Shown here: positions 2,222 to 53,647 of the stretch, piece by piece
Numbering within the stretch: position 1 is the first letter of the stretch
How the letters are laid out: every line of letters starts with the position of its first letter
Assembly: GCA_965205945.1 (NCBI GenBank)
Contig: CBDBIB010000001.1
Coordinates: 576,001-640,000, forward strand
DNA from: Bdellovibrionales bacterium
Lineage (GTDB): Bacteria; Bdellovibrionota; Bdellovibrionia; Bdellovibrionales; UBA1609
DNA length: 64,000 bases
Direction: 5' to 3'
Program-made: the position numbers and the translations under genes
The notes under the pieces: model-generated
Told to the model about the DNA's origin: nothing
Databases searched by the model: none
What the model saw: only the letters and a program-made list of their open reading frames with translations

Positions 2222-3195
2222 TCATGGGATTTTTTAAACCTTATTTTAAACTTAATAAAGTTCTACTACAAAGTATGAGTGGAATAGTGTTTCTTATCAA
2301 TCCAAGCATTGAAGTAATTAAGAATGATTATAACTTAACAGATAAAAAAATAATTCAGCTCCCTTTTGAAATGGACAATGAGTACTTTAAAACACCTAAA
2401 GAAATTGATACGTTTTTTTTATCAGCTAACAGGGTGAGTACTAAGAATATTAATAAGTATCTTACAATATATAAACCGTTAATTTTAAGTGCTTCTAATA
2501 TTTTTAAAATACCTTTTTCATTTCAATCCTGTTTAATTTTTAAAGAATCAAGATTCGATAAGAATGCCTTAAGTGCAGTGGGTGCTATGGGAATGGCCCA
2601 GTTTACAAAAGATACTTATCACTTCTTATCTAGAGCCTTACGCATAGGGCAAAATTCTTTAGAACATAAAAGAAAAAAAATACTAAATACAAGTGAATTC
2701 TTTTTTGTTGAATCTAATAGCAACAAACTTTCATACCCTAAGTATAATACAAGAATTTTCACTAAAATATATAGAATGTGGCTGGCATACTTAATAAGCA
2801 ATGACTTAAAAGAAATAAACTTAAGCTCTAAATCATTTAAAAATATATTATATAAACCAGAGTATTCAATAGGGTTATCTTCAATGTACTTGTACTACTT
2901 AAAGTATCGTGTACGGTATGGAATACGTAAACATATTGATGATGAAGATCCTAATGATCCAAATTTTATCCTCAGCATTGCAGGAGCTTATAATCAAGGC
3001 CCTAGACGAGTTCTTAAAGCTATAAAAAAAGATAGTACACCAAAATTTTTAACATTGATTGCATATCAATCTAAAATTAGAGAAACAAAAGACTACATCA
3101 GCTCAATTAGAAATTGTATGAGGAAAAATTCAAATACAGATTATGTGTTAAAAAAGCATCTAAATACTAAAAAAATAACTTTAATTAATCTTTAA
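2218..3195 (+). CDS. Lytic transglycosylase (SLT domain) protein
   Basis: KESRFD (catalytic Glu), SAVGAMGMAQF, AYNQGP and ETKDYI motifs; ATGA overlap with the upstream gene. Confidence 0.8.
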   Translation: MIMGFFKPYFKLNKVLLQSMSGIVFLINPSIEVIKNDYNLTDKKIIQLPFEMDNEYFKTPKEIDTFFLSANRVSTKNINKYLTIYKPLILSASNIFKIPFSFQSCLIFKESRFDKNALSAVGAMGMAQFTKDTYHFLSRALRIGQNSLEHKRKKILNTSEFFFVESNSNKLSYPKYNTRIFTKIYRMWLAYLISNDLKEINLSSKSFKNILYKPEYSIGLSSMYLYYLKYRVRYGIRKHIDDEDPNDPNFILSIAGAYNQGPRRVLKAIKKDSTPKFLTLIAYQSKIRETKDYISSIRNCMRKNSNTDYVLKKHLNTKKITLINL

Positions 3196-3241: not shown

Positions 3242-3318
3242 GGTGGCATAGCTCAGCTGGATAGAGCAACAGCCTTCTAAGCTGTGGGTCCCAGGTTCGA
3301 ATCCTGGTGCCATCACCA
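3242..3318 (+). tRNA. tRNA-Arg(UCU)
   Basis: Acceptor stem GGTGGCA/TGCCATC, anticodon arm ACAGC-CTTCTAA-GCTGT, TTCGAAT T-loop, encoded CCA. Confidence 0.97.
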
Positions 3319-3630: not shown

Positions 3631-6600
3631 TTAAAATTTCCCAACTACGTTAAAAAACCACCCATAACTATTAAAACTAAAATTTATAAGATCATCATTA
3701 AACCTAGTAAAGTTAAAACCTGTTCCCACTTTTAAATTGCCACCAAGGTGATAATCTAAGCCTACTAAAAAACCTTTTTGCAGATCTTTTGACTCTTTAA
3801 CCTGAACAAGCCTGTATTCAAAAATACCATCCCATTTTTTAATAAAATGATATCTTAATCTAATCTGTTCGAATGTAAGAGTTGTATCAACCCACAAACC
3901 ACTGTTTCTATTCACTCTTTGAGAGCCGATTTTTTGAGCAAGCCTTGCTCCCAACTCCCAACGCCTATTTAAGTCATATGTTCCCTCAACCGATCCAATA
4001 TGAACCTTCTGACTACCGCGAGCATTTGCTTGTGCTTGTGAATCCAAATCATACAGATACGTATATCTAGCAAAAAAATTCCAACGGTCTCTAAAAATAG
4101 GTCTAAGTGCATAACCTAAGTTCCCCTCTATATACCTTGCTAAAGCCTGAGTTGTATCCGTTGGATCTTCAGACAAAGAATAGTCTGCCTCTAAAAACCA
4201 AGTACTAGACGGACTCACTTTAAATTTTAAAGAGTTCGTTAATAACAACTGATCCAAATTTGTAACACCTTTATTCTTAACCAAAGAAACCTTAGAAGAT
4301 GCTGTAATATCTGTGTCTTTTGTATAAACAAACCCTAAACTAACAGCATTTTTACTTGTAACATCTCCTGTTAAATCGCTTTTAAGATCTCCCATTTGAT
4401 ATGAAAATGTCATCGATAACATTCTATTTAAGTTATAATCTAAACCATATAATTGGTTAATTCCAACACTGTCTCCTGTTTCTTGAAACTGATTTTCCGT
4501 AGTCATTCTTATTCCATTTTTAAAACTCTTACTCTGCCCAAGAGTAATCCCATTAGTAACAGGGCCACTTAAACTATCTACAGATTTATCTAAATTAGCA
4601 TATACCTTATGACCTTCTGTCACATTATAGCCAAGACCTGCCACTACAGCCTCTCCCCTATCTCCATTAGAATACTCTGTTGCTCCATCCCATTTACGAT
4701 TAATCTTAAACTTAGATCCTAATGCTGCACGATCATTTTTTCCGTAGCCACCCTTATACTTAGTAGTTGTTTGCCCTTTGACATAAACACTTAAACCAGG
4801 TTCTAATTTTTGACTATACTTTAGCCCAATTAAATGCCCTTCTTTTTTAGGCACAGATAAAGCTTCACTACTATCAATACGATACTCTAGACTGCTGCTA
4901 GCAGCACCCTCTTTAAACCTTCTACCATAAGAAATTATAAACGTATTTTTATCTACCCCATCTATCTCTTTTAAAAGGGCCATTTTAGATTTAATGATAT
5001 CTTTTTTATTAACATCAATCTCAAAATCATAACCATATTCTTTTAAATCATTTTGTGCTTGCCTTCTTGCAGTAGAAAACCCCTCTTCGTAGTCTCTATA
5101 CCATGTAGAAAAAACACCTTCTACTTTTGATTCCACAAAATCATTTAAAAAAAACTGTGACTCTACACCCCATGCTTTAGCTTTTGTAATAGGAGTTGCT
5201 GCCACAGGCTTTGCAATAAAACTCAACCCTCCATCTGTTGATTCAAAATTAGACCCTGACTGAATATCTTTTGTTTCTGAAGTTTCAGCCTTAACAAAGC
5301 TCTCTTTACCTAATCTTAATGTTGCATCTAAACCTGAAAGGTTATACTCAGATTTAATCCTACTTTCTTTCACATGTGTTCCACCTATGGAAACATAATC
5401 ACCAACCCACTGTTCAAGCCTCCCCCCATAAGTAAGAGTATTTAAGCTACCTCCTGTATCACTATATTCATAATCTGCAATTAAATAGTATTTATTATTT
5501 CCTATTCCATCAGGATCTATAACTTCATTAGAAGACTGCATCACAAACGTTGTTAAAGGTTGTGTAAGAACAACTCTTCCAGCCAAATAATCAAACTCGT
5601 AATGCTCATAAGGTTTTAATACAATCTGCTCTTTTAAACGCCCTGAATCTCTATACCTAACCTCAATAACTAGTTTCTCAGAGCCCTGTACAATATCATT
5701 ATGCTTTAATATATATAATCTACTACCTGTTCCTAAAAACTCATTGTGACCGAAAAGTGTTTCTGGTTCAGAAATAAAACCTGTAATTTTTGTTTTTTCT
5801 TCACCAAATTTTGTTTGAGATCTAGATTTGTGTTTTATATGTCCTCCATATAAAGTTCTATTGTATTGTGAAAATAAAGTGCTGGTTAAACCAGAATTTG
5901 CGTTACCCCACATAGCATGAGATTTATCCACTTCAATTTTTATATAAATTTTTCCTAATGTTGGAGTTGTTTGAATTGTTGTTGAATTATCACCGTATAC
6001 AGGGTAATATCTATCCGGATCTAATCTTCTAAACAAAGCCTCAGAATTTTTACGATGTAAGCCTTTAAAAATATCTCTAACATCCCCTTCTGTTGTATCT
6101 AATTTTGAAGTGAGCAAATACTTTCCTTTAACTTTTCCTTTTAAAAAATATGCTAATCTACCATCTAAAAAAACCTTTCCATCATATTCATCCGTGCTTA
6201 CGATTCCTGCAACTTTCTCACTTAAGCGATTTTCTCCAACCCTCATGTCGGCAAGTCCAATCATAAAAAAATATTTTCCAGAAACATCTACACTAAAAGG
6301 CACAGTAAAAACCTCATTGTTTGTCTTATCTTGAATGTCAATTTTGATTTTATGTTTCCCTATTGGAAAGTGTTCTTCAATAACAAATTTACCTTGCTCA
6401 TCTACTCGAACAGACTGACCTCGATAAGAAATGAAATGATCTTTTGGTATATTATTACCCACAAGTCTTACACGGCTACCTTTTATTACAATGTTTTGTT
6501 TTTCAACACTAGAATGACCCCAAATCTCAGCAATAGCATTGGACTCAATAAAACTATCTTTTTCATCTAAATTCTGATTTACAGATTTTTTAATAAAGGT

Positions 6601-7308
6601 GATTTTTTTAACTCTTACAATATCAAAAACTCTCTTTGACTCAAAAACTTTAAATTCATAATATAAAGAATCTCCAATATTATATTCTTTTTCATCAAAC
6701 TTATACTCTATATCATAAATAGAATTTGAATCTCCCTTTAAAGTTTTAATATCTATTTGAGAACTAAGTTTTCCTTTTTTAAATATCCTAAGTTCCCAAT
6801 TTTTAATAAAGGGTAAATAATTTGTATAAACTCTAAATTTAAGGCTGCCTGGTTTAAGCTCTACTTCTTTTTCAGTAGTGATCTCTAGCTGTGGAGATGT
6901 TATACCAGAATCTTCCGTCGCCCATATGGCAGCACCGTTTCTTAAACGAACTCTCCCTTCATAAAAAACATCAACTCTTCTTTGAAGTTGAAGTTCATTA
7001 TCTAGGTCTTTTCTCATTTTAACTGTTGTCACATCTTTAGAATCTAAAGCTCCATCTTTTTTTTCTTCCCCAGATGCAGGGCCTCTCAATTTTTCAGGTT
7101 CAGGGTAATCCTCTCCAAAACCTTGCGCTTCAAACATCCCCTTAGTTTCTTTCGGGTAACCCTTTGTAAACGCTGCTGGCACTCGACCTTTTGCATTATC
7201 TAACTCTAGATTCCCCGGAGTAACCTCTGCATTTGAAACTCCTACTGAGAGAAACAACAGGCAGAAGACAAAAACTTTTTTATCTACTTTCCTCTTTATT
7301 TTTCCCAT
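3631..7308 (-). CDS. Large outer-membrane beta-barrel protein of the DUF11-protein-associated type, with periplasmic N-terminal domains
   Basis: Signal peptide (MGKIKRKVDKKVFVFCLLFLSVGVSNA|E), long amphipathic beta-strand region and C-terminal BAM-type signal YGWFFNVVGKF. Motifs IWATED, GRLAYFLKGKVKGKYLLT and LDPDRYYPVYGD are ones I recognise from uncharacterised barrels beside DUF11 genes. ATG 7308 (GGAG 6 nt upstream) preferred over the track's GTG 7320; overlaps the upstream stop. Confidence 0.8.
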   Translation of the reverse strand: MGKIKRKVDKKVFVFCLLFLSVGVSNAEVTPGNLELDNAKGRVPAAFTKGYPKETKGMFEAQGFGEDYPEPEKLRGPASGEEKKDGALDSKDVTTVKMRKDLDNELQLQRRVDVFYEGRVRLRNGAAIWATEDSGITSPQLEITTEKEVELKPGSLKFRVYTNYLPFIKNWELRIFKKGKLSSQIDIKTLKGDSNSIYDIEYKFDEKEYNIGDSLYYEFKVFESKRVFDIVRVKKITFIKKSVNQNLDEKDSFIESNAIAEIWGHSSVEKQNIVIKGSRVRLVGNNIPKDHFISYRGQSVRVDEQGKFVIEEHFPIGKHKIKIDIQDKTNNEVFTVPFSVDVSGKYFFMIGLADMRVGENRLSEKVAGIVSTDEYDGKVFLDGRLAYFLKGKVKGKYLLTSKLDTTEGDVRDIFKGLHRKNSEALFRRLDPDRYYPVYGDNSTTIQTTPTLGKIYIKIEVDKSHAMWGNANSGLTSTLFSQYNRTLYGGHIKHKSRSQTKFGEEKTKITGFISEPETLFGHNEFLGTGSRLYILKHNDIVQGSEKLVIEVRYRDSGRLKEQIVLKPYEHYEFDYLAGRVVLTQPLTTFVMQSSNEVIDPDGIGNNKYYLIADYEYSDTGGSLNTLTYGGRLEQWVGDYVSIGGTHVKESRIKSEYNLSGLDATLRLGKESFVKAETSETKDIQSGSNFESTDGGLSFIAKPVAATPITKAKAWGVESQFFLNDFVESKVEGVFSTWYRDYEEGFSTARRQAQNDLKEYGYDFEIDVNKKDIIKSKMALLKEIDGVDKNTFIISYGRRFKEGAASSSLEYRIDSSEALSVPKKEGHLIGLKYSQKLEPGLSVYVKGQTTTKYKGGYGKNDRAALGSKFKINRKWDGATEYSNGDRGEAVVAGLGYNVTEGHKVYANLDKSVDSLSGPVTNGITLGQSKSFKNGIRMTTENQFQETGDSVGINQLYGLDYNLNRMLSMTFSYQMGDLKSDLTGDVTSKNAVSLGFVYTKDTDITASSKVSLVKNKGVTNLDQLLLTNSLKFKVSPSSTWFLEADYSLSEDPTDTTQALARYIEGNLGYALRPIFRDRWNFFARYTYLYDLDSQAQANARGSQKVHIGSVEGTYDLNRRWELGARLAQKIGSQRVNRNSGLWVDTTLTFEQIRLRYHFIKKWDGIFEYRLVQVKESKDLQKGFLVGLDYHLGGNLKVGTGFNFTRFNDDLINFSFNSYGWFFNVVGKF

Positions 7309-10300
7309 CATATTCTCCACTTAACGTTCTAGTTATATTCTTTACCTTATATTTAAACTTCTTAAGTTTCTTTAAATTATAATAACTATTTTGCTCCATA
7401 GTAAAACTATCAATTGGATCAAAAAATTTAATATCTTCTTGAAGATCTCCAATAAATTTAACTGGAATCACAACCCTTGCAGTTTCACCAGCTCTTAACT
7501 TTTTAAGTTTCCAAACCCCGTTACTATAGTCTCCTTGAGAAGCCTTAGCAGCAGATGTAAAAATTAAATACTTTTTATCAATATAATCTTTAATTTCAAT
7601 ATTTGAAGCAATCTGTTTTCCTACATTTTGAATTTTAATAATGTAATTAAATAACTCTCCTTCATAAATATCTTTTCTTGATACTGATTTTTTCACCCTT
7701 ACTTTAGCAGTATTATTAACTTTTATTGCACTTTTTTGTACATCTAACGTTAACTCACTATCAACTTGATTCATTGAAAAATCTGTATAACCTGCAAGCT
7801 TTACTGGAGTAGTGAAATTATTTAATTCAAAAGTCCAAATCATATCTACGACCTGCTTCGGAAAAATTTCTTTAATGAACCAAATCCCTCTAGCACTATA
7901 ATCTGTATCTGTTGCAATATCTCTATTTATAGATTTTAATGAATTTTGATCAAATAAAGGTTTAATTTTAATATTTGTTGCCACAGCAGGGCCATTGTTT
8001 CTTATTGTATATTTATATGTGACGTATGGAACATTAATTTTCTTCTTTAAGGCTTTAATTTCAATATTAATATCTGATTTATTCTCAATCACATACTCTT
8101 TGCTATAAATATCAATTTGTTTATTCAAATCATCTTTATCAATCTTATGTCTTTTTATTCTAATAAAAGCTTTTGTATTAGAAGTTTTAAATTTTACTTT
8201 TACCCTAATCTTTAAAGTTTCAATATCTTTATATTTAATATCTTTAACTGTCCACGTTAAATCCTCTACATTACCTTTTGTAAGGTTTGTTTTAATCAAC
8301 TCTAAGGAAGGACTGATTTCAAAATCTAATTCTGATTTATTAACAAACGCTGGACCTAAATTAGATTGCGAAATAATAAACTCAACCTCCTCTCCTTCCT
8401 CTAACGTATCCTTAGATTCAGATATTACTACAGCATAATCAACTTCTTTATTTATTTTCACAGAAACAGTAGTCGTATTACCTTTATCAGAAATCTCGGT
8501 TTGCTTCATATCTATAATACCAAAAGCATTAATCAATTCATCCTTATTGCAATTGTATTTAGGCTTCACTCTTAACGTCATCGTTAACGATTCTTTAAAA
8601 CCCAATTTATCTACACTTAGAGTTTTCTTCCTAACATCACCAACAGTTGAACGAGATGAAACCAATATCAAGCACCTATGTAAAGGAGGATTTAATTTAA
8701 GATTTTTTACCATTGCAGGGCCCTGGTTGCTCACAAAATAACTTAACTCAAACTCTTCACCTAAGTTAACATTTTTAACATTAGAAGAGATTTTTGTTAA
8801 AAGATCAGTTTTGTTATTAATCCTAAGCTTAGGTGATAATGAATCTTTAGAGATGATTACAAAATCCTCTCTCATTTTAATTTCATCAATTTTATCCTCA
8901 ATAACAAAACCTCCAGATCCTGGAGTTATTTCTGATAGCCATGTAAGCTCAGCTTTTTCATGAACCTTAAGAGTTGGAATTAACCATGAATTACTAATAA
9001 GATTAGTATTTTTAGACACAGATACATATTTATGTTTAACTAAATGACTGTGAATAATATCTTTGATTCTAATATTGTTTGCCATAGCTGGGCCCATGTT
9101 TTTAATTCTAGTACTTGTTAAGATTTTATCTCCTTCATCAGCTCTAGATTTACTAAATTCTTTTACCAATATGATATTTGTCTGACTAGCTACTCTAATC
9201 TTAACTGTATCAATAGAATTTTTTAATAAATCTTTTTGCTCATGAGTAAATTTTTCTACTGGATCTAGAATCGTTGAGCCACCAGTTCCTTCTAATATTT
9301 TTACAGATACCTTCATTTTAGCAGATTCACCTTTTAACAATTCTAAAATAGTCCATTTTGCACCAGAAGCACTTCCTTTACTTACCTTAAGATCCCCTAA
9401 TTTAATAAGTGATGAATCAATAATATCTTCAAGCACCAGATCTTGCGCTACAGCTGGACCTTTATTTATAATCCTCCAAGTTATAAACACCTCATCGCCT
9501 TCTTCAGGATAAGTATCAGAAACTGTTTTTGTTAGAATAATATCAGTATTATTTAGAATTTGTATTTCATCTTCAAAAATATCTTTTGTTAACTCTAAAT
9601 CAATTTGATCTAAAGAAACATCATAAACCATTCCTTTTAAAATGGAAGATCCTGATCTAGGTTTAGGTGTCAATACAAATACAATCTCCTCTGAGTTTCC
9701 ATAATCAATAAAGTTAATGCTCCATATATTGTCCTTAAAACTTCCTTTTGTAGCTTTTGTTGATAGCAGCTTAAACTCTTCATCAAATGATATGGCCACC
9801 CCTACATTAGTAGCCTTAATTGGTCCTTTATTATAAGCCTTTACTAAAAATCTAATTTGATCACCTTCATTAGCTGCTTTAACATTAAATGATGATGCAA
9901 TTACAAGATCTAAATTGTTCCTAACCTGAATAGACAACGTTTCAATATCTTTTGTTTTATCTATATCTACCTGTTCTGCATATACAGTTGCTACTCCTAC
10001 TACCATTTCTTTAGTAGCAGATCCCACCTTACTGTTAGCATTAATTTTTGCCACCGCTTTTTCACCACTCATCAATGTTCCAATAATCCATTGATCTTTA
10101 GTAACTACACCATGTGATACAGATATATTTTGTATGTTAATAGATTTATCTTGAATAAGATCTACCACTAATTTAGTCGCTGCAGCAGGACCATTATTAA
10201 CCCCAGTAATCACATAGTTAAAGTTTTCACGCTCATCTACTTCAGTATGACTTAAATTTGTAGTAATATTAAAATCTAACTCATTCTTAATTCTACCAAT

Positions 10301-22300: not shown

Positions 22301-25300
22301 ACCTGTTCCTATCGTGTCAATAGCATTATTTGTAACTGTAATCGTGTATGTTATAACTTCGCCCTCTTCAGGGTTACTTTCACTAACTGTTTTAACAATT
22401 CCAATATCAAAAATTCTTGCTTCTATATTAGCAGCATCAATATTATTTAACGGATTTTCTTCAGTCTCGTTAAAACTTAATACTTTTGCAGTGTTTGTAA
22501 TTACTCCTAAAGCATGAGCTCCAGCATTTACTCTTGACCTAAAAGTTAATGTACTTGTTACTCCAGCTCCTATAGATCCAATAGTCCAAGTTAAACCCCC
22601 TGTAACTGTACCAGGATCTAAATCATTTCTTTCTGTTCCTCCTCTAATTGAATCTTGAACATATGTTACACCTGCTGGAACAACATCCCCTATGACTACA
22701 TCTGTTGCAACTTGTGTACTTAAGTTTTCTACCGTAATTGTGTATGTGATTTCTTCACCCTCTGCTGGTGTCGCATTACTTACAGTTTTAATTAATTCTA
22801 AATCTATTCCTTTTATTGTAATAACAACTGAATCTCTATCATTAGCCGCTTGATCATCTGTTTGATCCAAAGACGTAATCTCACTCGTATTTGTGATGTC
22901 TCCTTCAGATGCTTTAGCACCTGGATCTACCTTAACTCTAAAAGTTAGCTCCGTAGTAACTCCACCTGCTATTGTATCAATTGTCCATGTAAGCCCTGAA
23001 CCTAAAACATTCTGGTTGTCGCCTCCAAAAATAGAACCTTGAACATATGTTAAACCTGCTGGAACTAGATTCGTTACCTCTACCCCTGTAGCATCTTGTG
23101 TACTTAAATTTCTTACTCTTAATGTATATGTAATCTCTTCACCTTCTGTCGGTGTCGTATTGTTTACACTTGTTTCTATACTTAAATCTAATCCTACTAC
23201 CGCAACCGTCACTTCTCCTGTATCATTTAACGAATCTGAATCTATTTGATCCGAACTTATTCTAGATGCACTATTAATTATTTCTCTATAAAATGCTTGA
23301 GCACCTAAATCCACCGTTGCTTGAAATGTTAAATCTATATCCGAATTTGGTGCTAAACTTGAAATCCTCCACTCTAACCCTGCTGTAACAGGATCTGACT
23401 CATCTACTAATGCTACACCTCCAATGGAACCTTGAACATATGTTAAACCTGCTGGAACTACATCTTTAATTACTATATTTGTTCCAACTGCCACACTAGA
23501 TCTGTTGTCAACATTTATTGTATACGTAAATGTTTCACCTTCTTGAACACTTGTTTTACTTGATCTTTTTGTAACCGCTACATCAAATTCTTGAGCTGTA
23601 ATATTTCGACTTCCATTATTATTTAACGGATTTTCTTCAGTCTCGTTAAAACTTAATACTTTTGCAGTGTTTGTAATTACTCCTAAAGCATGAGCTCCAG
23701 CATTTACTCTTGACCTAAAAGTTAATGTACTTGTTACTCCAGCTCCTATAGATCCAATAGTCCAAGTTAAACCCCCCGTAACTGTACCAGGATCTAAATC
23801 ATTTCTTTCTGTTCCTCCTCTAATTGAATCTTGAACATATGTTACACCTGCTGGAACAACATCCCCTATGACTACATCTGTTGCAACTTGTGTACTTAAG
23901 TTTTCTACCGTAATTGTGTATGTGATTTCTTCACCTTCTGCTGGTGTCGCATTACTTACAGTTTTAATTAATTCTAAATCTATTCCTTTTATTGTAATAA
24001 CAACTGAATCTCTATCATTAGCCGCTTGATCATCTGTTTGATCCAAAGACGTAATCTCACTCGTATTTGTGATGTCTCCTTCAGATGCTTTAGCACCTGG
24101 ATCTACCTTAACTCTAAAAGTTAGCTCCGTAGTAACTCCACCTGCTATTGTATCAATTGTCCATGTAAGCCCTGAACCTAAAACATTCTGGTTGTCGCCT
24201 CCAAAAATAGAACCTTGAACATATGTTAAACCTGCTGGAACTAGATTCGTTACCTCTACCCCTGTAGCATCTTGTGTACTTAAATTTCTTACTCTTAATG
24301 TATATGTAATCTCTTCACCTTCTGTCGGTGTCGTATTGTTTACACTTGTTTCTATACTTAAATCTAATCCTACTACCGCAACCGTCACTTCTCCTGTATC
24401 ATTTAACGAATCTGAATCTATTTGATCCGAACTTATTCTAGATGCACTATTAATTATTTCTCTATAAAATGCTTGAGCACCTAAATCCACCGTTGCTTGA
24501 AATGTTAAATCTATATCCGAATTTGGTGCTAAACTTGAAATCCTCCACTCTAACCCTGCTGTAACAGGATCTGACTCATCTACTAATGCTACACCTCCAA
24601 TGGAACCTTGAACATATGTTAAACCTGCTGGAACTACATCTTTAATTACTATATTTGTTCCAACTGCCACACTAGATCTGTTGTCAACATTTATTGTATA
24701 CGTAAATGTTTCACCTTCTTGAACACTTGTTTTACTTGATCTTTTTGTAACCGCTACATCAAATTCTTGAGCTGTAATATTTCGACTTCCATTATTATTT
24801 AACGGATTTTCTTCAGTCTCGTTAAAACTTAATACTTTTGCAGTGTTTGTAATTACTCCTAAAGCATGAGCTCCAGCATTTACTCTTGACCTAAAAGTTA
24901 ATGTACTTGTTACTCCAGCTCCTATAGATCCAATAGTCCAAGTTAAACCCCCTGTAACTGTACCAGGATCTAAATCATTTCTTTCTGTTCCTCCTCTAAT
25001 TGAATCTTGAACATATGTTACACCTGCTGGAACAACATCCCCTATGACTACATCTGTTGCAACTTGTGTACTTAAGTTTTCTACCGTAATTGTGTATGTG
25101 ATTTCTTCACCCTCTGCTGGTGTCGCATTACTTACAGTTTTAATTAATTCTAAATCTATTCCTTTTATTGTAATAACAACTGAATCTCTATCATTAGCCG
25201 CTTGATCATCTGTTTGATCCAAAGACGTAATCTCACTCGTATTTGTGATGTCTCCTTCAGATGCTTTAGCACCTGGATCTACCTTAACTCTAAAAGTTAG

Positions 25301-28300
25301 CTCCGTAGTAACTCCACCTGCTATTGTATCAATTGTCCATGTAAGCCCTGAACCTAAAACATTCTGGTTGTCGCCTCCAAAAATAGAACCTTGAACATAT
25401 GTTAAACCTGCTGGAACTAGATTCGTTACCTCTACCCCTGTAGCATCTTGTGTACTTAAATTTCTTACTCTTAATGTATATGTAATCTCTTCACCTTCTG
25501 TCGGTGTCGTATTGTTTACACTTGTTTCTATACTTAAATCTAATCCTACTACCGCAACCGTCACTTCTCCTGTATCATTTAACGAATCTGAATCTATTTG
25601 ATCCGAACTTATTCTAGATGCACTATTAATTATTTCTCTATAAAATGCTTGAGCACCTAAATCCACCGTTGCTTGAAATGTTAAATCTATATCCGAATTT
25701 GGTGCTAAACTTGAAATCCTCCACTCTAACCCTGCTGTAACAGGATCTGACTCATCTACTAATGCTACACCTCCAATGGAACCTTGAACATATGTTAAAC
25801 CTGCTGGAACTACATCTTTAATTACTATATTTGTTCCAACTGCCACACTAGATCTGTTGTCAACATTTATTGTATACGTAAATGTTTCACCTTCTTGAAC
25901 ACTTGTTTTACTTGATCTTTTTGTAACCGCTACATCAAATTCTTGAGCTGTAATATTTCGACTTCCATTATTATTTAACGGATTTTCTTCAGTCTCGTTA
26001 AAACTTAATACTTTTGCAGTGTTTGTAATTACTCCTAAAGCATGAGCTCCAGCATTTACTCTTGACCTAAAAGTTAATGTACTTGTTACTCCAGCTCCTA
26101 TAGATCCAATAGTCCAAGTTAAACCCCCTGTAACTGTACCAGGATCTAAATCATTTCTTTCTGTTCCTCCTCTAATTGAATCTTGAACATATGTTACACC
26201 TGCTGGAACAACATCCCCTATGACTACATCTGTTGCAACTTGTGTACTTAAGTTTTCTACCGTAATTGTGTATGTGATTTCTTCACCCTCTGCTGGTGTC
26301 GCATTACTTACAGTTTTAATTAATTCTAAATCTATTCCTTTTATTGTAATAACAACTGAATCTCTATCATTAGCCGCTTGATCATCTGTTTGATCCAAAG
26401 ACGTAATCTCACTCGTATTTGTGATGTCTCCTTCAGATGCTTTAGCACCTGGATCTACCTTAACTCTAAAAGTTAGCTCCGTAGTAACTCCACCTGCTAT
26501 TGTATCAATTGTCCATGTAAGCCCTGAACCTAAAACATTCTGGTTGTCGCCTCCAAAAATAGAACCTTGAACATATGTTAAACCTGCTGGAACTAGATTC
26601 GTTACCTCTACCCCTGTAGCATCTTGTGTACTTAAACTTCTTACTCTTAATGTATATGTAATCTCTTCACCTTCTGTCGGTGTCGTATTGTTTACACTTG
26701 TTTCTATACTTAAATCTAATCCTGCAATCGTTAATATCTGTTCAACACTATTATTTGCGATAACAGAATCGATTTGATCTAATGACTGAATCATTGCAAC
26801 ATTTGTGATTGTTTCGGATATAGCCCTAGCCCCTATATCAACAGTAGCTCGAAAAATTAAATTTGTACTGCTTGCATTTGGAAGAGAGTTTATTGTCCAA
26901 TTTAAACCTGTTAAAGGTGTTAAATCATTATTGCTGTCACCACCTTCAATTGAATCTGGTACATAAGTTAGGCCTACAGGAACTATATTGTTTACAATAA
27001 TATTAGTTCCTTCTACAAGCGCATTATTGTTCGTAAGTGTTAAAGTTACTACTACCTCTTCTCCCTCTTCTAGGGTGCTTTCAGACACCTCCTGTGAAAT
27101 GCCTATATCAAAAGTAATTGGAGTTATAGAAGCCACTGAAGTATCGTTTGTAGTATTTGTATCATTTTCCATTAAAGAAATAATACTTGCTCTGTTTTCA
27201 ATGTTTCTTAAGCTCGCAGCTCCAGCATCCACAGTTACATCAAATGTAATGATGGCTTGATTAAAAGGCGCTTCACTAACAGGCCTTAATTGCGGAATAG
27301 TAAATTCTAACCCCGTGGCTGGAGAAGACTCATCTACAGTAGTTCCTGCAATACTTGATTCCCATGAGTCTGCCACATATGTTACACCATCTGGTACGAT
27401 ATCCCTTACTAAAATAGTATTTAATGTATTTTCTTGTGCGTTGTTTACCGTAAGAGTATAAGAGGCTGTTCCACCTTCTATGACAATCATTGGATTAACT
27501 GTTTTCGTAATACTTGCATCAAAATTAACAATAGTAATTGTAGTATCTGAGGCGTTGTTAGAAAGGTTTTCATCTACTGGATTACTTGCCTGTAAATGCC
27601 CTTCTATCCTTCTAGTTCCATAATTTAAAGCAGCCCCTGGATTCACTATAACTTTATAAGTCATCGTTATAACTTCACCCACCTCAATAGTACCTATGGA
27701 GAATATAATTCCATTATTACCTGGATCAGTATCATCCGGAGTAACACCCTCACCTAAAGCACTAGATGGAACATAGTTTAGCCCAATTGGAACGACAGAT
27801 ATTATTTCAGCACTTGTTAGTTCTTGAGCGCTAACATTTTCTACACTAATTGTAAGTGTAACCGTATCACCTTCATTTACTACTGTTGTGCTTGGTTGAA
27901 TCTGAACCTTTAAATCAGCAGCAGCTACAATAATATCGACTGAATCTGTATTATTAGATACATTACTCTCAGCCTGATCCACAGCTGTTATTGTTGCTGA
28001 ATTTGGAATTGTTGCAATTACATTTGGTATTGCTGAAAAAGTTAATGTTATTACTTGATTAGAATTTATAGTTCCTAATGTCCAAATGATTCCTGTCCCT
28101 GGGTTACTATCATTTACTAAAACCCCTCCCTTTGCAGAAGATGAAACATACGTTAACCTCGGATCTAAAATATCTGTTAATTCAACCCCTGTAGCAGAAT
28201 TTGTACCTAAATTTGAAACTGTAATAGTGTAATCAACTTGCTGACCTAATCCCGGTGCTACTGTATTTGCTGTTTTTAAAACCTTTAAATCAATACCTTG

Positions 28301-29545
28301 AGCTCTTATTTGCCCTGTGCCTGTATTATTAGTCTCATCAACATCTACACCCAAATAACTTTTAGTCTCCGCAGTAGATACGATTAACCTTCCATCTGTT
28401 CCTGTATCTAGCATAGCTTTAAAAATTAGAGTCACGCTCTCCCCCGCTAAAAGAGGGCCTATATTCCAGCTTAATCCCACGCCTACAGGATCAGAATCAT
28501 TCCTACTCTGACCACCGGTAATACTTTCAAGCATATAAGTTAAACCATTTGGTATAACAGATGAAATAACTATCTCGGATGTTCCATTAGGCCCTCTGTT
28601 AGAAACATTTACCGTATAAGTAACGATATCACCTATGTTAGGCTCCATAACCGATGGACTAATTGTAACCTGAAGATCCATATCATCATTTACCGTTCCC
28701 CACTTACAGTTTAAGTAGTCAGCTAAATCTGAAAAGTTTGTCGCAGCAAAGTTAAGCATTCCAAACTCATATATATTAGCTTCCTGATAATTTATGTCAT
28801 TCCTATTTACCCACAGTTTTATCCTATCAATATTGAGTTCATTAACTATACTTCTTGAATCATGAAGCAATCCATCTATAAAAAATTTTGCTTCTTTAGT
28901 TGATGCATCATAAGTTAAATAAAAAGAGTGAGGTTTATTATCAAGAGATCGACCACAAAGACGATGTGCACTAGATCCATCTCTCACCAACCAAGAAAAT
29001 TGGTTTCTCTTAGGACAATCCCTTGAACTAGCTCCTCTTGTGGACAGGTCAAACTGCCAAGATCCAGCATCAGAACTATTGTCCCCTCCACTCATAAAAG
29101 CTCTGAAATCTTGATTAATTTGTGGATCTAGAAATGACTTAAATACAAAATAAACTGTAAAACTTTGATCACGTAACCCTGCACTATATTGAAGGGTATC
29201 ATCAACGCCATCCGCTCGTAAATAATTCTCCGCTAGCCCACCAGTGCTTCCGCTTTCAAAACGAGGTCTTGCGTCAGATGTTGGAGCAATTAACTCAGGC
29301 CCATTCTCTAAATTTTCAGCGTTTATCCATTTGTTAACATAATTTGAAAAATTACTACTTGTTGCATCATTACCATCCCCATCTATAATGGATTTTTTTA
29401 CATTTGCGTCTAAGTTTAAAATCACATCGCTTGAAGAGTAAATATCCGGGGTTAAACTATCACAAGATTGCGCAAGAGCAGTACCACTACTAACACTTAA
29501 TGCTAATAAAAATACCCCTATATATGTGTATCGAATAAGATCCAA
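7280..29545 (-). CDS. Giant (7421 aa) DUF11-repeat adhesin-like surface protein
   Basis: TTG start with AGGT SD; signal peptide ending TALA|Q; LamG/ConA-like N-terminal domain. About 53 DUF11-type repeats by my count (DLxIxKTV..PxEG..xTYTITVxNxGP). Also a SIIGKVFHDRDGDGYQD..EEGIPGVRI linker domain and an OmpA-like half domain (VQGFADFRG..NKILSMNRA). Confidence 0.9.
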   Translation of the reverse strand: MDLIRYTYIGVFLLALSVSSGTALAQSCDSLTPDIYSSSDVILNLDANVKKSIIDGDGNDATSSNFSNYVNKWINAENLENGPELIAPTSDARPRFESGSTGGLAENYLRADGVDDTLQYSAGLRDQSFTVYFVFKSFLDPQINQDFRAFMSGGDNSSDAGSWQFDLSTRGASSRDCPKRNQFSWLVRDGSSAHRLCGRSLDNKPHSFYLTYDASTKEAKFFIDGLLHDSRSIVNELNIDRIKLWVNRNDINYQEANIYEFGMLNFAATNFSDLADYLNCKWGTVNDDMDLQVTISPSVMEPNIGDIVTYTVNVSNRGPNGTSEIVISSVIPNGLTYMLESITGGQSRNDSDPVGVGLSWNIGPLLAGESVTLIFKAMLDTGTDGRLIVSTAETKSYLGVDVDETNNTGTGQIRAQGIDLKVLKTANTVAPGLGQQVDYTITVSNLGTNSATGVELTDILDPRLTYVSSSAKGGVLVNDSNPGTGIIWTLGTINSNQVITLTFSAIPNVIATIPNSATITAVDQAESNVSNNTDSVDIIVAAADLKVQIQPSTTVVNEGDTVTLTISVENVSAQELTSAEIISVVPIGLNYVPSSALGEGVTPDDTDPGNNGIIFSIGTIEVGEVITMTYKVIVNPGAALNYGTRRIEGHLQASNPVDENLSNNASDTTITIVNFDASITKTVNPMIVIEGGTASYTLTVNNAQENTLNTILVRDIVPDGVTYVADSWESSIAGTTVDESSPATGLEFTIPQLRPVSEAPFNQAIITFDVTVDAGAASLRNIENRASIISLMENDTNTTNDTSVASITPITFDIGISQEVSESTLEEGEEVVVTLTLTNNNALVEGTNIIVNNIVPVGLTYVPDSIEGGDSNNDLTPLTGLNWTINSLPNASSTNLIFRATVDIGARAISETITNVAMIQSLDQIDSVIANNSVEQILTIAGLDLSIETSVNNTTPTEGEEITYTLRVRSLSTQDATGVEVTNLVPAGLTYVQGSIFGGDNQNVLGSGLTWTIDTIAGGVTTELTFRVKVDPGAKASEGDITNTSEITSLDQTDDQAANDRDSVVITIKGIDLELIKTVSNATPAEGEEITYTITVENLSTQVATDVVIGDVVPAGVTYVQDSIRGGTERNDLDPGTVTGGLTWTIGSIGAGVTSTLTFRSRVNAGAHALGVITNTAKVLSFNETEENPLNNNGSRNITAQEFDVAVTKRSSKTSVQEGETFTYTINVDNRSSVAVGTNIVIKDVVPAGLTYVQGSIGGVALVDESDPVTAGLEWRISSLAPNSDIDLTFQATVDLGAQAFYREIINSASRISSDQIDSDSLNDTGEVTVAVVGLDLSIETSVNNTTPTEGEEITYTLRVRNLSTQDATGVEVTNLVPAGLTYVQGSIFGGDNQNVLGSGLTWTIDTIAGGVTTELTFRVKVDPGAKASEGDITNTSEITSLDQTDDQAANDRDSVVITIKGIDLELIKTVSNATPAEGEEITYTITVENLSTQVATDVVIGDVVPAGVTYVQDSIRGGTERNDLDPGTVTGGLTWTIGSIGAGVTSTLTFRSRVNAGAHALGVITNTAKVLSFNETEENPLNNNGSRNITAQEFDVAVTKRSSKTSVQEGETFTYTINVDNRSSVAVGTNIVIKDVVPAGLTYVQGSIGGVALVDESDPVTAGLEWRISSLAPNSDIDLTFQATVDLGAQAFYREIINSASRISSDQIDSDSLNDTGEVTVAVVGLDLSIETSVNNTTPTEGEEITYTLRVRNLSTQDATGVEVTNLVPAGLTYVQGSIFGGDNQNVLGSGLTWTIDTIAGGVTTELTFRVKVDPGAKASEGDITNTSEITSLDQTDDQAANDRDSVVITIKGIDLELIKTVSNATPAEGEEITYTITVENLSTQVATDVVIGDVVPAGVTYVQDSIRGGTERNDLDPGTVTGGLTWTIGSIGAGVTSTLTFRSRVNAGAHALGVITNTAKVLSFNETEENPLNNNGSRNITAQEFDVAVTKRSSKTSVQEGETFTYTINVDNRSSVAVGTNIVIKDVVPAGLTYVQGSIGGVALVDESDPVTAGLEWRISSLAPNSDIDLTFQATVDLGAQAFYREIINSASRISSDQIDSDSLNDTGEVTVAVVGLDLSIETSVNNTTPTEGEEITYTLRVRNLSTQDATGVEVTNLVPAGLTYVQGSIFGGDNQNVLGSGLTWTIDTIAGGVTTELTFRVKVDPGAKASEGDITNTSEITSLDQTDDQAANDRDSVVITIKGIDLELIKTVSNATPAEGEEITYTITVENLSTQVATDVVIGDVVPAGVTYVQDSIRGGTERNDLDPGTVTGGLTWTIGSIGAGVTSTLTFRSRVNAGAHALGVITNTAKVLSFNETEENPLNNIDAANIEARIFDIGIVKTVSESNPEEGEVITYTITVTNNAIDTIGTGLEITDVVPEGVTYVQGSIRGGTERNDLDPYTITGGLTWNINSIASETDIILTFDAVVNARAKDNYGIITNTAQMTNVDQADSTPENDQGSVDITVRGIDLSIVKTVDNQSPEEGAKITYTIIVSNLSGQTATNIVVEDIVPDGVTYVLNSIKGGTQRNDENHDTTGLVWVFPTLSVGAVETLSFQATVDPRAKDDYGTITNTVNLKLSDQSEEDNTNNTDGAMITVSGLDLEVIKTVDNANPLERSEVIYKISVANLSQQEATNVVLKDLVPAGVTYVQNSIRGGTSRNDSTPTSGDGLTWTHASLLAGETKSVTFRAQVDAGSQATYGAIINSAEFSSADQSEDNVSNNISSALITIKAFDLSVLKTVSNFSPEEGEEIEYIITVTNKIDDEVGTGIVIGDIVPEGITYVDFSMRGGSLQDDTTPTLGDGLVWHINTLAGGDSVSLRFKARVDIGAKVNSGGTITNTARLINLNQVDSNQVNNEGLVDITVRGLDLEVLKVVNNPTPVEFETVTYTISVKNLSSQPATNVVLKDLVPAGITYRQGTIAGGDIQNDLTPDDITGLTWTINTLAPNQIVDVMFNAQVNAGAYNEYGTITNSAEFSSADQSEDNLGNNVGAVDIIVQALDIEIEKQISNTEPIEGQIVTYTLLVKNFSGATATNINITDIVPDGVTYVPGSIAGQALYNDINPDTTGLTWLIESLSGVGPENIASLTFQATVDVGARGLGSVINTGTITSLDQTDSNLDNDSDTADFLARGVDIVINKQVNESMPNETQVITYSLVVTNSGPADATNIVVRDILPPGLTYQVGTMIGGDLKNESDPTGAGLRWTINSLLSGESKTVTFNAQIDSGAGGMSITNTSDIFSIDQTEENLTNNTDSVTVTVTTDLDIQVAKTSNKSNYEEGEEVTYTITVTNHGPSRATGLVIKDIVPLDIIYTTASMLGGDAQIESSPYGTGLKWTINSLTSVGPLNSVDLTFKGVVGAGANLNTLITNSASYTSVDQTEINPVNNVGTRDINILNNLDISLTKAVSNTTPNIGEIVTYTIGVTNAGPTQASSVVINDIIPTGLFYMPRTDSGVDSVNSTDPSGTGVDFSIGKISSGQTKNITFDVMVLESSNLHNPITNTAQLSSSAQTDINDLNNSGNVDLNVNSDLDIQITKTVSNILPFELEEVVYTVNVKNNGPAAASDIKVVDLLDSNLSYIAGSMVGGDHQDDRTPGSGDGLKWTINQLLKGENLDLIFRAAPKEGTSGRAIVNTGNLLSSAQLDIDNSNDTSLVSIDVRNDADLEIIQAVTSTTPSETDTLTYTLTLRNNGPTTSRDVVVSNLVPTGLTYVENSISGGHIQNDLTPSTASGLEWTVHQILSGEVSILTYEVTVDSGFAGEVISTVSNITSFISTEVDFANNTSRIDVTVDNTLDLFIEKQVDKNNPLELETLTYTINVSNKSLKTRASNITITDIIPPGLTYVTGSINGGSTRLDADPAQAGLNWTIIQLGPLQTETLIFQVIVNAKTAGDVIVNTLTRVALDQVDTNTTPDDLSEAVTVQNVIDLQVIKTASSLQPALLSEMTYTITVENFGPSVGENIQITDIVPDFMDYVLGSMTGADDRNELDPAGTGLVWIINEIAIGATKTLTFKVISGLGAKNLSITNTVSYTHSYLDTQSNDTLSVTVNLESRSDVQISKVVDNSTPSIGEIFKYIITVTNNGPVTVESIQLNDLLPAGLTYISDNSLGTYDSVTGNWGVTSFLPVGASISLEISASPLPGTGGSIITNTVTNFILDVIDTNLTSDDYTEDIRVIEKIDVYIDGIVVNSNPEEGDFVTLTYNVTNNGPKVATNMTLQTIVPEGLTFIPGTMVGADNVNNIGATLTWDINTLAVGVTETISFQVSVDVGSGGSTLSTVLDITAIDQTEDTQVVDNNELSLIIKNEADIFFSKTANLNAVDEGDQVVFTIQVTNNGPAQAKNVEIYDILSTFFTLNSQVPTQGAYAGSKWSIGTLNMGQVETLILTVDVNPGASGQVIVNRLDNQSQDQIDLNIEADDLEETVVVGTNTDLQILVTIIDDPGADEILEENQVFTYQIEVVNNGPNRAENLSMDFFAPPQVDFINNGVVASAGTYFFPTWSIPAVNSGSSATLKIQSKVKTGIFNQVITAQVIGFTLDQFDSNKTPDDLTEVFTVDDKVDLHITKTVDVQAPQEGDEVTFTVRVENKGPANATGIQIQDIFPSTLLSLESYFSTKGIFDSNTMLWDISSLPVNDTAVLNLRSRVELEAGGIDIINTVQLNSFDQTDSNITPDDLSEVLSVGNNTNLEISKTVSNRTPNEGELITYTITVRNNGPSGATNFSLTDILPAGVTFISARANLGSFQDDVWSIRVIPNGFISTLEIETEVDYGQGGSVIRNEISSVTFDQNDSIGASNDILFADILVKHETDLFITKITDESIYSEGEMVRFTINVTNNGPALAENVSVQDQIPAGLTYLAHNESDGTAYSISNGVWTLGDIAVDESKTLTIDATANVGTKGQFITNTVSNITLDETDLNHSNDDLDETIQIVNELDLVVSIISDQVFLNEQDDVTFTVVVSNIGPARGTNVGVLIALPVLFNFESYNITGGSFDSNTRIWSIPTIDRNEFFTLEITAKALEGSGGQTATTQAQVLLVDQEELETSNDIDTTDVFINNNNNLILTKIVDNNTPREGEVVTFTLTVENQGPAQARNLEIIDAMPAGLTFASSAAATHGSYLVNKWIVGNLSMGETASIQILATVDKETNGQIITNIITNVLQSGTDIDPLGDDLEEVIVVDKQVDLMITKTVDDSNSFEGDLIEFTIQATNNGPIAIDNLVIDDTLPTGLTFSSASIPSHGTFVKPQWIIPRLNIGEIANLEISATVDAGTTNTRITNIISNYTMDQFDSTDTDDLEESVNIDNGTDLIVTKIVDNPTPYEQSLISYTITVYNNGPARATNVTIEDVIPAGLTLLSSTASQGIYTANLWSVGTLENAQTETLTLIVSIDIGQSGNTIVNQILTVDLDQIDLNPAGDDLEESITVENDLDLDINLSVDKTIIDEGEEFTYTIVVRNNGPNQASNFKIIDDWPSQLELISADSLNFIVSTRTWNIGDLASGETVALNIKARALKGTSGQIISNTISYTLDQIDSTVGDTLSADVTVNSDLDLVIFKTVNNARPNEDEEIIFTIIVENNGPARATNIFMKDILPAQLTFVSATAFSGNTFSYPDWVIPQLDAGDVVELSIVARVNSGTSGQTVINTISDITLDQTDINLSPDDLSEQIDIRNESDIYVTKNINTGVVYGESATAIFTITVENKGPLAVNGLEIDDDLDDRFILISSTASKGSFLEPVWSVGSLLVGEKATLNLEVRPNEDAQNTKIINKISRIESDKLDSNTTPDDLIAELNILGNSSVIIRIKTDKDVASMGDLLGVELEVESLVTDVFEPLKVVANLPQGLSYIKGTTKVLRAGDDGIFETEDDVFLDLDIETVKSLSTSEKLAVDGKELSFLMSTTGLEKYKIIFQTRVGSSIVGNGVSIGAFAEFENFKVTSEVRALIVIQKSVIFDITSIIGKVFHDRDGDGYQDESIVRGLKVYGGTSLENVRDTDSMIDRGNGFKKISGDVKKGYRLGALSGRSSRNDYSKTTYVKLKIPIKESIKKDLGVVTSEGTALLFKSDGRVIEELTGLRRKGMSSQDILVSHTIIEEEKEKFLLVTINNMGVDEEGIPGVRIYGVNGLAHETDGFGRFHIPDIEFKHNRGHNYILKVDPKTLPKNSTFTTENPRVIKLTGGLFTKFNFGVKIPILSEGKVFQSKKISESILFNVAKSNIRESEVNKVEKLTKELSNLPLDLNDGKVFVQGFADFRGLAEKNKILSMNRAKTIMNKIQDVTADLKFLVDVDNTAPHEQDIVKFVAQVKNKGLSSVSNLEINLPLPEQFKLHGRIKSSLGNYNGNRWFIKNLEGKSGAKLEFSAKVKVLTSNEEFMLPVAHYIYEGLQAQIGVKDIAAIGRIKNELDFNITTNLSHTEVDERENFNYVITGVNNGPAAATKLVVDLIQDKSINIQNISVSHGVVTKDQWIIGTLMSGEKAVAKINANSKVGSATKEMVVGVATVYAEQVDIDKTKDIETLSIQVRNNLDLVIASSFNVKAANEGDQIRFLVKAYNKGPIKATNVGVAISFDEEFKLLSTKATKGSFKDNIWSINFIDYGNSEEIVFVLTPKPRSGSSILKGMVYDVSLDQIDLELTKDIFEDEIQILNNTDIILTKTVSDTYPEEGDEVFITWRIINKGPAVAQDLVLEDIIDSSLIKLGDLKVSKGSASGAKWTILELLKGESAKMKVSVKILEGTGGSTILDPVEKFTHEQKDLLKNSIDTVKIRVASQTNIILVKEFSKSRADEGDKILTSTRIKNMGPAMANNIRIKDIIHSHLVKHKYVSVSKNTNLISNSWLIPTLKVHEKAELTWLSEITPGSGGFVIEDKIDEIKMREDFVIISKDSLSPKLRINNKTDLLTKISSNVKNVNLGEEFELSYFVSNQGPAMVKNLKLNPPLHRCLILVSSRSTVGDVRKKTLSVDKLGFKESLTMTLRVKPKYNCNKDELINAFGIIDMKQTEISDKGNTTTVSVKINKEVDYAVVISESKDTLEEGEEVEFIISQSNLGPAFVNKSELDFEISPSLELIKTNLTKGNVEDLTWTVKDIKYKDIETLKIRVKVKFKTSNTKAFIRIKRHKIDKDDLNKQIDIYSKEYVIENKSDINIEIKALKKKINVPYVTYKYTIRNNGPAVATNIKIKPLFDQNSLKSINRDIATDTDYSARGIWFIKEIFPKQVVDMIWTFELNNFTTPVKLAGYTDFSMNQVDSELTLDVQKSAIKVNNTAKVRVKKSVSRKDIYEGELFNYIIKIQNVGKQIASNIEIKDYIDKKYLIFTSAAKASQGDYSNGVWKLKKLRAGETARVVIPVKFIGDLQEDIKFFDPIDSFTMEQNSYYNLKKLKKFKYKVKNITRTLSGEYDGKNKEESR
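22441..26723. repeat. Intragenic tandem repeat, 1176-bp unit (392 aa, three DUF11 domains), about 3.6 copies
   Basis: Marker CTTAAATCTAATCCT recurs at 23181, 24357, 25533 and 26709 (period 1176). I spotted only three substitutions between copies (about 23777, 23936, 26637). Confidence 0.97.
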
Positions 29546-36466: not shown

Positions 36467-36508
36467 TTAAATATCTCCCTTGCTTAGTTTAATAAGTTGA
36501 ACATATTT

Positions 36509-53624: not shown

Positions 53625-53647
53625 TCTTTTTTTGCATACTAAAGTTT

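Follow-up and report, generated by a model that had tools for sequence, protein, structure and literature searches.

A giant DUF11 fibre gene and its barrel partner in a Bdellovibrionales genome: a candidate two-gene surface-display system with a probable split OmpA-like latch

By what route could a repeat protein of 7421 amino acids be carried to the cell surface and held there? The question is raised by two overlapping genes on the minus strand of a 64,000-nucleotide stretch, here called the window, of a Bdellovibrionales bacterium (assembly GCA_965205945.1, contig CBDBIB010000001.1, forward-strand positions 576,001 to 640,000; coordinates below are those of the window). The giant gene (7280–29545, TTG start) encodes the repeat protein. 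The barrel open reading frame (ORF; 3631–7320) encodes 1229 aa from a GTG start or, from an ATG at 7308, 1225 aa; the ATG is preceded six bases 5′ by a GGAG ribosome-binding site, the 1225 aa equal the length of the closest barrel relative (P0001), and with the gene placed at 3631–7308 the two genes overlap by 29 bases. Barrel residues are numbered from GTG 7320. Both N-termini were read by eye as Sec/SPI (signal peptidase I) signal peptides, that of the giant protein comprising residues 1–25 (29471–29545, ending in TALA before Q) and that of the barrel lying at 7228–7308 (ending in VSNA before E), and the barrel has the C-terminus VVGKF. The ORFs, their lengths, the signal peptides and the terminal Phe are all as a first-pass annotation of this DNA had described them.

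The reading favoured here, at a probability of about 0.6, is that the two proteins latch together in the periplasm, bind peptidoglycan and display the acidic stalk of the giant protein through the barrel, forming a two-gene surface-display system that would serve both secretion and anchoring. Sec would carry both proteins across the inner membrane, as the signal peptides suggest, and the β-barrel assembly machinery (BAM) would insert the barrel, as suggested by its C-terminal Phe and by two Omp85 genes elsewhere in the genome. In the periplasm, on the evidence of sequence pattern and model, the N-terminus of the barrel would lend strands β3 and β4 to an incomplete OmpA-like domain of the giant protein, latching the two proteins 1:1 and building a peptidoglycan-binding anchor. 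The barrel, predicted to be about 7.5 nm across at the backbone, would leave room for DUF11 domains in their folded, isopeptide-locked state. The tip and the 43 acidic domains may then exit through the barrel lumen, while the linker would halt at the pore or within it, and the OmpA domain and nine Lys-rich domains would remain inside. With about 4–4.5 nm per DUF11 domain, the result would be a tethered, protease-resistant fibre of very roughly 170–200 nm with a LamG-like adhesive tip. Direction might, speculatively, come from folding, from Ca binding or from the negative charge of the stalk.

The barrel and the OmpA-like domain split between two proteins

The barrel core (3634–6273, residues 350–1229) was modelled with AlphaFold2 from 121 sequences, with a mean predicted local distance difference test score (pLDDT) of 83 and a predicted TM-score (pTM) of 0.77, and is predicted to have about 40 strands, counted as 48 DSSP strand elements minus 8 (one loop strand, and the strands of a domain inserted between strands 7 and 8). 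Every loop of more than 11 residues, seven in all, comes after an odd-numbered strand, the pattern of an even-stranded barrel with both ends in the periplasm. Among 233 sequences the top covarying pair joins the first and last strands (most of the other top pairs in that set look like lineage noise), and closed porins align over model range 1–880; both fit a single closed barrel, which with 40 strands and a round cross-section would have a backbone diameter of 73–78 Å. The core is best conserved over its first 270 and last 40 residues, around the seam between strands 1 and 40. FRRLDPDxYYPVYGD, the family's best-conserved motif, lies in a long loop after strand 3 (5947–6096) that has low confidence in the partner-free model, and the folded insert that separates strand 7 from strand 8 (5464–5757) is a candidate plug or collar domain. 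The structure prediction proposed in the first-pass annotation thus points to a C-terminal-Phe barrel larger than SprA, whose 36 strands make it the largest known barrel according to the consulted part of a 2026 survey that excluded barrels of more than 26 strands (bioRxiv 10.64898/2026.03.07.710327).

No Pfam, NCBIfam or PDB sequence match was obtained for the barrel, in keeping with the first-pass statement that POTRA and Omp85 motifs are absent. The best Foldseek TM-score by query was 0.26, with no solved structure standing out, and the same held for fold-search Z scores (16-strand porins, 13.9 over 253 residues; PapC, 11.2; CdiB, 10.5; SprA, 10.3). The family itself is large: 901 of 7999 scored candidates of similar length and 262 of 7527 longer ones were hits.

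Between signal peptide and core the barrel protein carries an OmpA-like C-part, described below, followed by two domains predicted to be periplasmic: an unnamed β-rich domain (6589–6945, residues 126–244) with no Pfam match, present in 116 of 120 fused relatives, and an immunoglobulin (Ig)-like domain (6274–6510, residues 271–349), present in 105 of 120, for which a relative gave a weak Big_13 match.

The giant protein in turn carries an OmpA-like N-part (10652–10909, residues 6213–6298; β1-α1-β2-α2, with GFAD and LS..RA motifs) that ends after the second helix. It covers positions 1–65 of 98 of Pfam OmpA at E = 3.8e-5, below cut-off strength, and positions 4–82 of a 123-position family profile built from 86 complete domains; two unrelated passengers likewise cover Pfam positions 1–66. 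The missing strands were found at the N-terminus of the barrel (C-part, 6961–7134), where β3 (residues 63–73, FEAQGFGE) and, after a variable spacer, α3-β4 (residues 105–120, RRVDV) place the two strand sequences 50 residues apart. The elements that define an OmpA domain (β1-α1-β2-α2-β3-α3-β4, with Asp after β2 and Arg in α2) are thus present only in the two proteins jointly, Asp and Arg (D6272 and R6287) in the giant protein and β3 and β4 in the barrel. In OmpA domains the Asp and Arg at those positions bind peptidoglycan, and the completed domain is predicted to do likewise.

The same division recurs in the family. Among 101 stand-alone passengers (29 of 130 having been dropped because 60 or fewer residues follow the linker; some entries may be fragments), the OmpA N-part alone follows the linker in 80, a full domain in 8 and neither in 13, and the last match reached the final OmpA strand in 0 of 91. 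Stand-alone barrels contain the C-part in 47 of 105 cases, with none of 44 matches starting before profile position 61; the median end of the passenger matches is position 86, and barrel matches begin at 88. The last-strand motif RRx[DE][VI] was present in 73 of the 105 barrels versus 2 of the 101 passengers (shuffles: mean 0.6, maximum 3). All 27 nearest relatives keep this motif, behind spacers of 45–258 residues, and 19 keep the β3 pattern. At two loci where the passenger ends right after the linker, with no N-part, the barrels also lack the last-strand motif. From these patterns, the split latch appears to be family-wide.

When the two halves from the window were co-folded without alignments, the model scored 0.67, versus 0.00 for the best of three controls, and passed a mark that 51 of 78 solved complexes and 2 of 108 mismatched pairs also attained. 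The runs shared at least 87% of contacts, with a partner pLDDT of at least 57. In the model, barrel residues V116–V118 sit between I6229 and V6267 of the giant protein, placing β4 between β1 and β2, and F63–G67 pair on the far side of β2, which is the OmpA sheet order. Since halves of a known domain can pass through their likeness to solved OmpA domains, the model is taken as a fit and not as binding in cells. Pattern and model together indicate that the split OmpA-like domain is probably the latch between the two proteins. DUF11 strand exchange was also considered as the link and was rejected, the last domain of the giant protein looking complete.

Two relatives, P0137 and P0144, contain a complete OmpA domain as an insertion in the SdrD-like domain. 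These two and P0151 are minimal fused forms in which 18–25 residues separate linker and barrel and both periplasmic β domains are absent.

Stalk, tip and tail of the giant protein

The giant protein contains 52 matches to PF01345 (DUF11) and one divergent domain, where about 44 domains had been annotated; 43 of the 52 precede the linker and 9 follow the OmpA-like half domain. The 43 stalk domains (12089–28684, residues 288–5819) are acidic without exception (net −5 to −14 per 100 residues) and contain 2.3% Lys, a value as low as or below those of all but 0.5% of the 944 long frames of the genome. The DUF11 or CLIPPER domain, according to the parts of PMC12617251 cited here, forms an Asp-catalysed Lys-Asn bond that confers heat and protease resistance, and stalks of such domains are typical of surface fibrillar adhesins. 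Using reference positions from that source, the triad was scored as Lys in strand 1, Asp about 33 residues on and Asn about 90 residues on; it was found in 31 of the 43 domains of the stalk and in 0 of the 9 of the tail. In the part of the stalk examined in each of genomes G172 and G232 it occurred in 30 of 36 and 31 of 36 domains, respectively, again with 0 of 9 in the tail; in G232 the triad lysine accounts for 31 of the 34 lysines of that part. Isopeptide bonds are accordingly predicted for the stalk from the presence of the triad, and because domains locked in this way resist unfolding, any passage of the stalk would probably be in the folded state. A PDB sequence search with one repeat returned nothing significant, nor did it retrieve the solved CLIPPER domain.

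The N-terminal tip (28685–29470, residues 26–287) is a LamG/concanavalin A-like jelly roll by Atlas matches (0.97–0.98, with PF13385), and the tip of an orthologue matches Laminin_G_3 at E = 0.0014, below cut-off strength. The window's own tip gave no Pfam or PDB match. The lectin-like tip of the first-pass annotation therefore stands as to its LamG-like resemblance, on weak matches; the tip is likely LamG-like and adhesive.

The stalk is followed by a linker of two parts: a divergent DUF11-type domain (11621–12085, residues 5821–5975), in which the triad is kept in 229 of 239 relatives and lost in the window's clade, and an SdrD_B-like domain with a 150-residue insertion and the family signature TENPR (10910–11620, residues 5976–6212). 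A linker model from 12 sequences (pLDDT 72, pTM 0.45) gave only a partial match to SdrD and pilin domains. Beyond the OmpA-like N-part lies a clade-specific tail of nine Lys-rich DUF11 domains (7370–10651, residues 6299–7392) with 11.8% Lys (genome median 10) and a net charge near zero.

The linker thus falls at a change in triad and charge that extends beyond this locus. Of 382 stored proteins 266 have the linker, and in these the domains matched by the window's repeat profile carry the triad in 127 of 161 cases before it and 0 of 18 after it, the 18 coming from two proteins, both of the window's clade. In 117 of 120 fused proteins the content of Lys plus Arg is lower in the stalk than in the stretch from linker to barrel (means 3.2% versus 11.0%). 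We infer that the stalk is extracellular and all parts after the linker periplasmic; the tail is probably periplasmic. The giant protein had been annotated as a passenger, which would hold for tip and stalk; it is not a pure passenger, its last fifth probably remaining in the periplasm.

A recent tandem expansion (22442–26725) consists of about 3.6 copies of a 1176-base three-domain unit that are more than 99% identical. Two runs of one sample, which may be the source sample, gave a summed contig depth of 15–23 at 25608–26941 versus about 5.5–5.9 alongside; this is consistent with a real multi-copy array, although in these runs no contig spans the array and 23607–24940 is without cover. The expansion pattern of the G172 stalk differs from that of the window. 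One loose contig end at 11804 (run X2) resembles library adapter and is presumably a technical end, not biology. An origin of the giant ORF as an assembly artefact was rejected because same-genus orthologues of equal size exist as open frames of 7296 and 8919 codons in two genomes. In loci L034 (genome G053) and L003 the passenger genes are split over several frames, through lesions or through assembly errors in the repeat array.

Pairing, distribution and genome setting

The first-pass annotation took the barrel to be a dedicated partner and proposed an analysis of gene neighbourhoods, which bears this out. All of the best 120 long relatives have linker and barrel in a single chain, the linker first, with a gap of 18 to about 900 residues, and 136 of the 266 stored linker proteins are fused to a barrel. 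Stalks of the fused relatives vary, with SdrD_B, Calx-beta, cadherin and DUF11 domains in their Pfam lists. In the window's phylum the barrel was found in 8 of 401 genomes and a strong linker match in the same 8, on the same contig, with two further genomes having weak matches only; seven of the eight supplied rows to the query alignment, and kin are not independent. A second sample, the class of one Gammaproteobacteria genome (390 genomes, one unscored), contained the barrel in 48 genomes, the linker in 40 and both in 39. There the linker (E up to 1e-10) lay within 7 kb upstream on the same strand at 29 of 32 strong barrel places (E < 1e-70), fused at 11 and split at 18. Adjacency or fusion, the shared set of eight genomes and the domain common to both proteins all argue for a dedicated pair. 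Cultured, harmless bacteria with a two-gene locus include Croceibacterium atlanticum 26DY36, Sulfitobacter guttiformis and Sinorhizobium meliloti T073.

A tree of 94 barrels (that of the window, every third of 239 stored and 13 from loci; midpoint root) requires at least seven changes between fused and split forms. A signal-peptide-like stretch before the barrel part is retained in 10 of 131 fused proteins, a sign that some fusions came from two-gene forms. The window's clade groups with proteobacterial barrels, apart from the five other sampled barrels of its phylum, which suggests separate acquisition. As a control on covariation among 120 fused proteins, the Lys-Asp-Asn triad was recovered.

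Several variants were observed. A second, distant barrel subfamily of about 1830 aa matches core residues 3–340 only (L030–L032: G053:C5:327056-327979, G113:C44:3667-4644 and G318:C35:3544-4461) and occurs in operons with three small DUF11-like genes, the linker lying inside the barrel protein. The order is reversed, with the barrel upstream of the passenger, in G113 (L035 474-10829 with L028 16519-19962) and also in G318, and this passenger ends in two further OmpA domains. A fused relative at G557:C2:459805-463992 has an open frame of 11,777 codons, and a probable remnant, an isolated 53-residue copy of the barrel C-terminus with 83% identity, lies about 67 kb away from the intact gene (G172:C5:412146-412304, L016).

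The genome (1.87 Mb, 32.5% G+C, 97% complete) has all of its 52 DUF11 matches within the giant gene, and at its size the pair makes up 1.4% of it. Two close relatives, encoded adjacent to each other, are source-labelled Bdellovibrionales. On the minus strand no promoter-like site was found upstream of the pair and no terminator downstream, and a scan of the window found no riboswitch. A tRNA-Arg(TCT) gene (3242–3318) lies 313 bases beyond the barrel stop and a tRNA-Phe(GAA) gene is at 59763–59838; together with the barrel tree they hint that the pair is an acquired island. Genes for a TlpA-like thioredoxin and an SLT lytic transglycosylase (1595–3195) converge on the barrel gene and were not seen beside the barrel in G172 or G232. 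The window contains no motor operon, and judging by ORF ends there is no sign of one in the 20 kb that follow the barrel in G172 and G232. Elsewhere in the window are a stand-alone Fis-type helix-turn-helix protein (130 aa) with an unnamed 151-aa protein (36074–37737) and a row of four unnamed small ORFs followed by a Ser/Thr protein kinase gene (53199–56167).

Known systems, rival readings and significance

Whether the pair is an ordinary variant whose barrel is a distant member of an established family (TonB-dependent receptor, usher, TpsB or SprA) was judged by sequence, strand number and fold search, and none of these classes fitted. What favours membership is the label 'TonB-dependent receptor' on 6 of 26 barrel records in a plasmid collection, the insert domain, which could serve as a plug, and VIA alignments with TonB-dependent receptors, which begin at model residue 181–185, within that insert. 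The barrel has no plug or receptor Pfam match, however, its insert comes after strand 7 of about 40 and the rmsd (root mean square deviation) to such receptors exceeds 20. TpsB gave no Pfam or NCBIfam match, and CdiB reached only Z 10.5 with an rmsd of 13.1; for PapC the values were 11.2 and 14.1, and the usher family PF00577 was absent from the barrel and from the 97% complete genome, with a control found in E. coli. Accessions for TonB receptors, ushers, ShlB/POTRA, Omp85 and autotransporters occurred in the precomputed Pfam lists of none of 240 listed relatives. Genome searches for SprA and PorP/SprF gave no match, but the controls run with the SprA_N, ShlB and PorP searches matched nowhere either. 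With no database sequence match, about 40 strands and a best TM-score of 0.26 and Z of 13.9, this explanation is very improbable.

The secretion types were compared feature by feature. In fused form the pair resembles an autotransporter and in split form two-partner secretion, and it lacks the defining features of both. Fused relatives share with type Va the order of signal peptide, extracellular passenger and C-terminal barrel with an aromatic end; they differ in having about 40 strands in place of 12, two-gene forms as well, and an OmpA-like and two β domains, predicted to be periplasmic, between passenger and barrel. PF03797 is absent from both giant protein and barrel, so that the passenger indeed has no autotransporter barrel. 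With type Vb the pair shares two adjacent Sec-exported proteins, a large passenger and a dedicated barrel; unlike type Vb it has no POTRA, no 16-strand Omp85 barrel, no two-partner secretion domain and no β-helix, the passenger, having a LamG-like tip and a DUF11 stalk and no NPNG motif, is not a TpsA, and recognition would apparently run through the split OmpA-like domain near the passenger C-terminus.

Ushers such as FimD and PapC are likewise large barrels with an inserted domain that pass folded Ig-like domains and use donor-strand complementation. They have 24 strands versus about 40 here, and here the fibre is a single chain with no chaperone or pilins, and the donated strands would complete a periplasmic OmpA-like domain, not a pilin. 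SprA of type IX, too, is a single chain forming a very large barrel that can pass domains in the folded state; the differences are the lack of a sequence match, a fold alignment with an rmsd of 9.3 over 395 residues (Z 10.3), a core of 880 residues versus more than 2,000, one dedicated cargo, and a passenger without a type IX C-terminal domain, neither type A nor type B having been found in Pfam and NCBIfam scans of its C-terminal part, as annotated. Type IX systems also export DUF11 adhesins, with co-occurring CHU_C and Por_secre_tail domains (PMC12617251, part of the text).

Type I giant adhesins such as LapA are acidic Ig-repeat fibres held in the pore by a periplasmic retention domain, much as is proposed for the present fibre. 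Here the orientation is opposite, with the C-part inside, and there is a Sec signal and no RTX, ATP-binding cassette (ABC), membrane fusion protein (MFP) or TolC component. Neither GGxGxD nor NPNG occurs in the giant protein, and no type I ABC or MFP family was found in Pfam scans of the other window ORFs (12, then 24: all except a 107-aa ORF nested on the opposite strand at 57680–58003), nor did a separate search give a type I MFP above cut-off; on both points the first-pass annotation was right. Type I systems, ushers and TonB-dependent receptors likewise have defining features that the pair lacks. The CLIPPER adhesins, exemplified by Acinetobacter silvestris B9T28_05395, share with it an adhesive tip, a tandem Lys-Asp-Asn stalk and a C-terminal OmpA-like 'anchoring' domain; the main text of PMC12617251 gives no export route, and 'barrel' and 'outer membrane' occur there 0 times.

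That the barrel exports or anchors the passenger outside the usual schemes is supported by these comparisons, and the stalk would probably pass through it. Because a fused chain starts from the periplasmic side of strand 1, an external stalk has to cross the membrane in or beside the barrel, and passage through the barrel's own lumen is considered the more probable route. The barrel might instead only hold the fibre, which would be moved by a hybrid barrel with BAM or TAM (the translocation and assembly module), as in autotransporters, or by a type II secretin, and would come to lie in the barrel afterwards. Three secretin genes elsewhere in the genome and the two Omp85 genes offer such routes, no energy-coupling gene lies next to the pair among the scanned window ORFs, and the conservation peak around the strand 1–strand 40 seam fits lateral loading. 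A secretin route is ill-suited, however, to a chain whose C-part is latched in the periplasm or fused to the barrel, and a 40-strand pore far exceeds the need of a pure anchor, 12 strands being sufficient in type Va; we consider this alternative rather unlikely. More doubtful still is that the whole giant protein stays in the periplasm as a connector or scaffold between outer membrane and peptidoglycan, like SlpA of Deinococcus, the barrel being a large pore for something else. The split OmpA domain would link such a pair to peptidoglycan, and SlpA is among the better Foldseek TM-scores (0.23–0.26), yet against it stand the 43-domain stalk with its LamG-like tip, triad and Lys loss on the N-terminal side only, and the varied stalks of fused relatives, which expand and contract; the typical place of CLIPPER stalks in surface fibrillar adhesins (PMC12617251, as above) speaks against it too.

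Several findings weigh against the favoured reading of a latched pair with a displayed stalk, beyond the alternative export genes. An upstream linker is missing at three of the 32 strong barrel places and any linker match from 9 of the 48 barrel genomes, contig ends being unexamined, and covariation between linker and barrel is weak and centred on one hub column. Of the 105 stand-alone barrels 32 lack the last-strand motif, and 8 of the 27 nearest relatives lack the β3 pattern; for the barrel of the window itself, the C-part reaches 2.5 bits with the OmpA profile, less than the best shuffle (7.3), because of its spacer. The strand count is our own reading of DSSP elements, made without coordinates. 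Besides G172 and G232, no more than 2 of the 266 stored linker proteins have the tail, whose nine domains, at about 35–40 nm, would be long for a periplasm of commonly assumed width. The first domains of L002 and L003, both fused and Gammaproteobacterial, are Lys-rich, so the charge rule is not strict.

The system is real, widespread and undescribed within the literature searched, where no description of the barrel family was found (supplements and most subscription papers were outside the scope); as a categorically new system it is a candidate, with its function inferred. The unnamed barrel types in the IsItABarrel supplement (PMC10629564) could include this family. We put at about even the chance that the pair stands for a secretion system of a new class, found in about one-eighth of the sampled Gammaproteobacteria genomes and several other groups, with the largest predicted single-chain outer-membrane barrel, passing folded isopeptide-locked domains, in which the split OmpA-like domain recognises and keeps the cargo, making capture and wall anchoring one step, and in which fused and two-gene forms interconvert at the split. 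The locus would add a candidate secretion class with a predicted barrel bigger than SprA, a family-wide split OmpA latch, and an isopeptide and charge boundary marking the membrane side of each part; a barrel displaying folded cross-linked domains could also serve surface-display engineering. The paper defining the CLIPPER adhesins leaves their export route open in the part cited (PMC12617251), and the arrangement proposed here, if true, would explain the surface route of many Gram-negative CLIPPER- and SdrD-type adhesins with a terminal 'OmpA-like anchor'.

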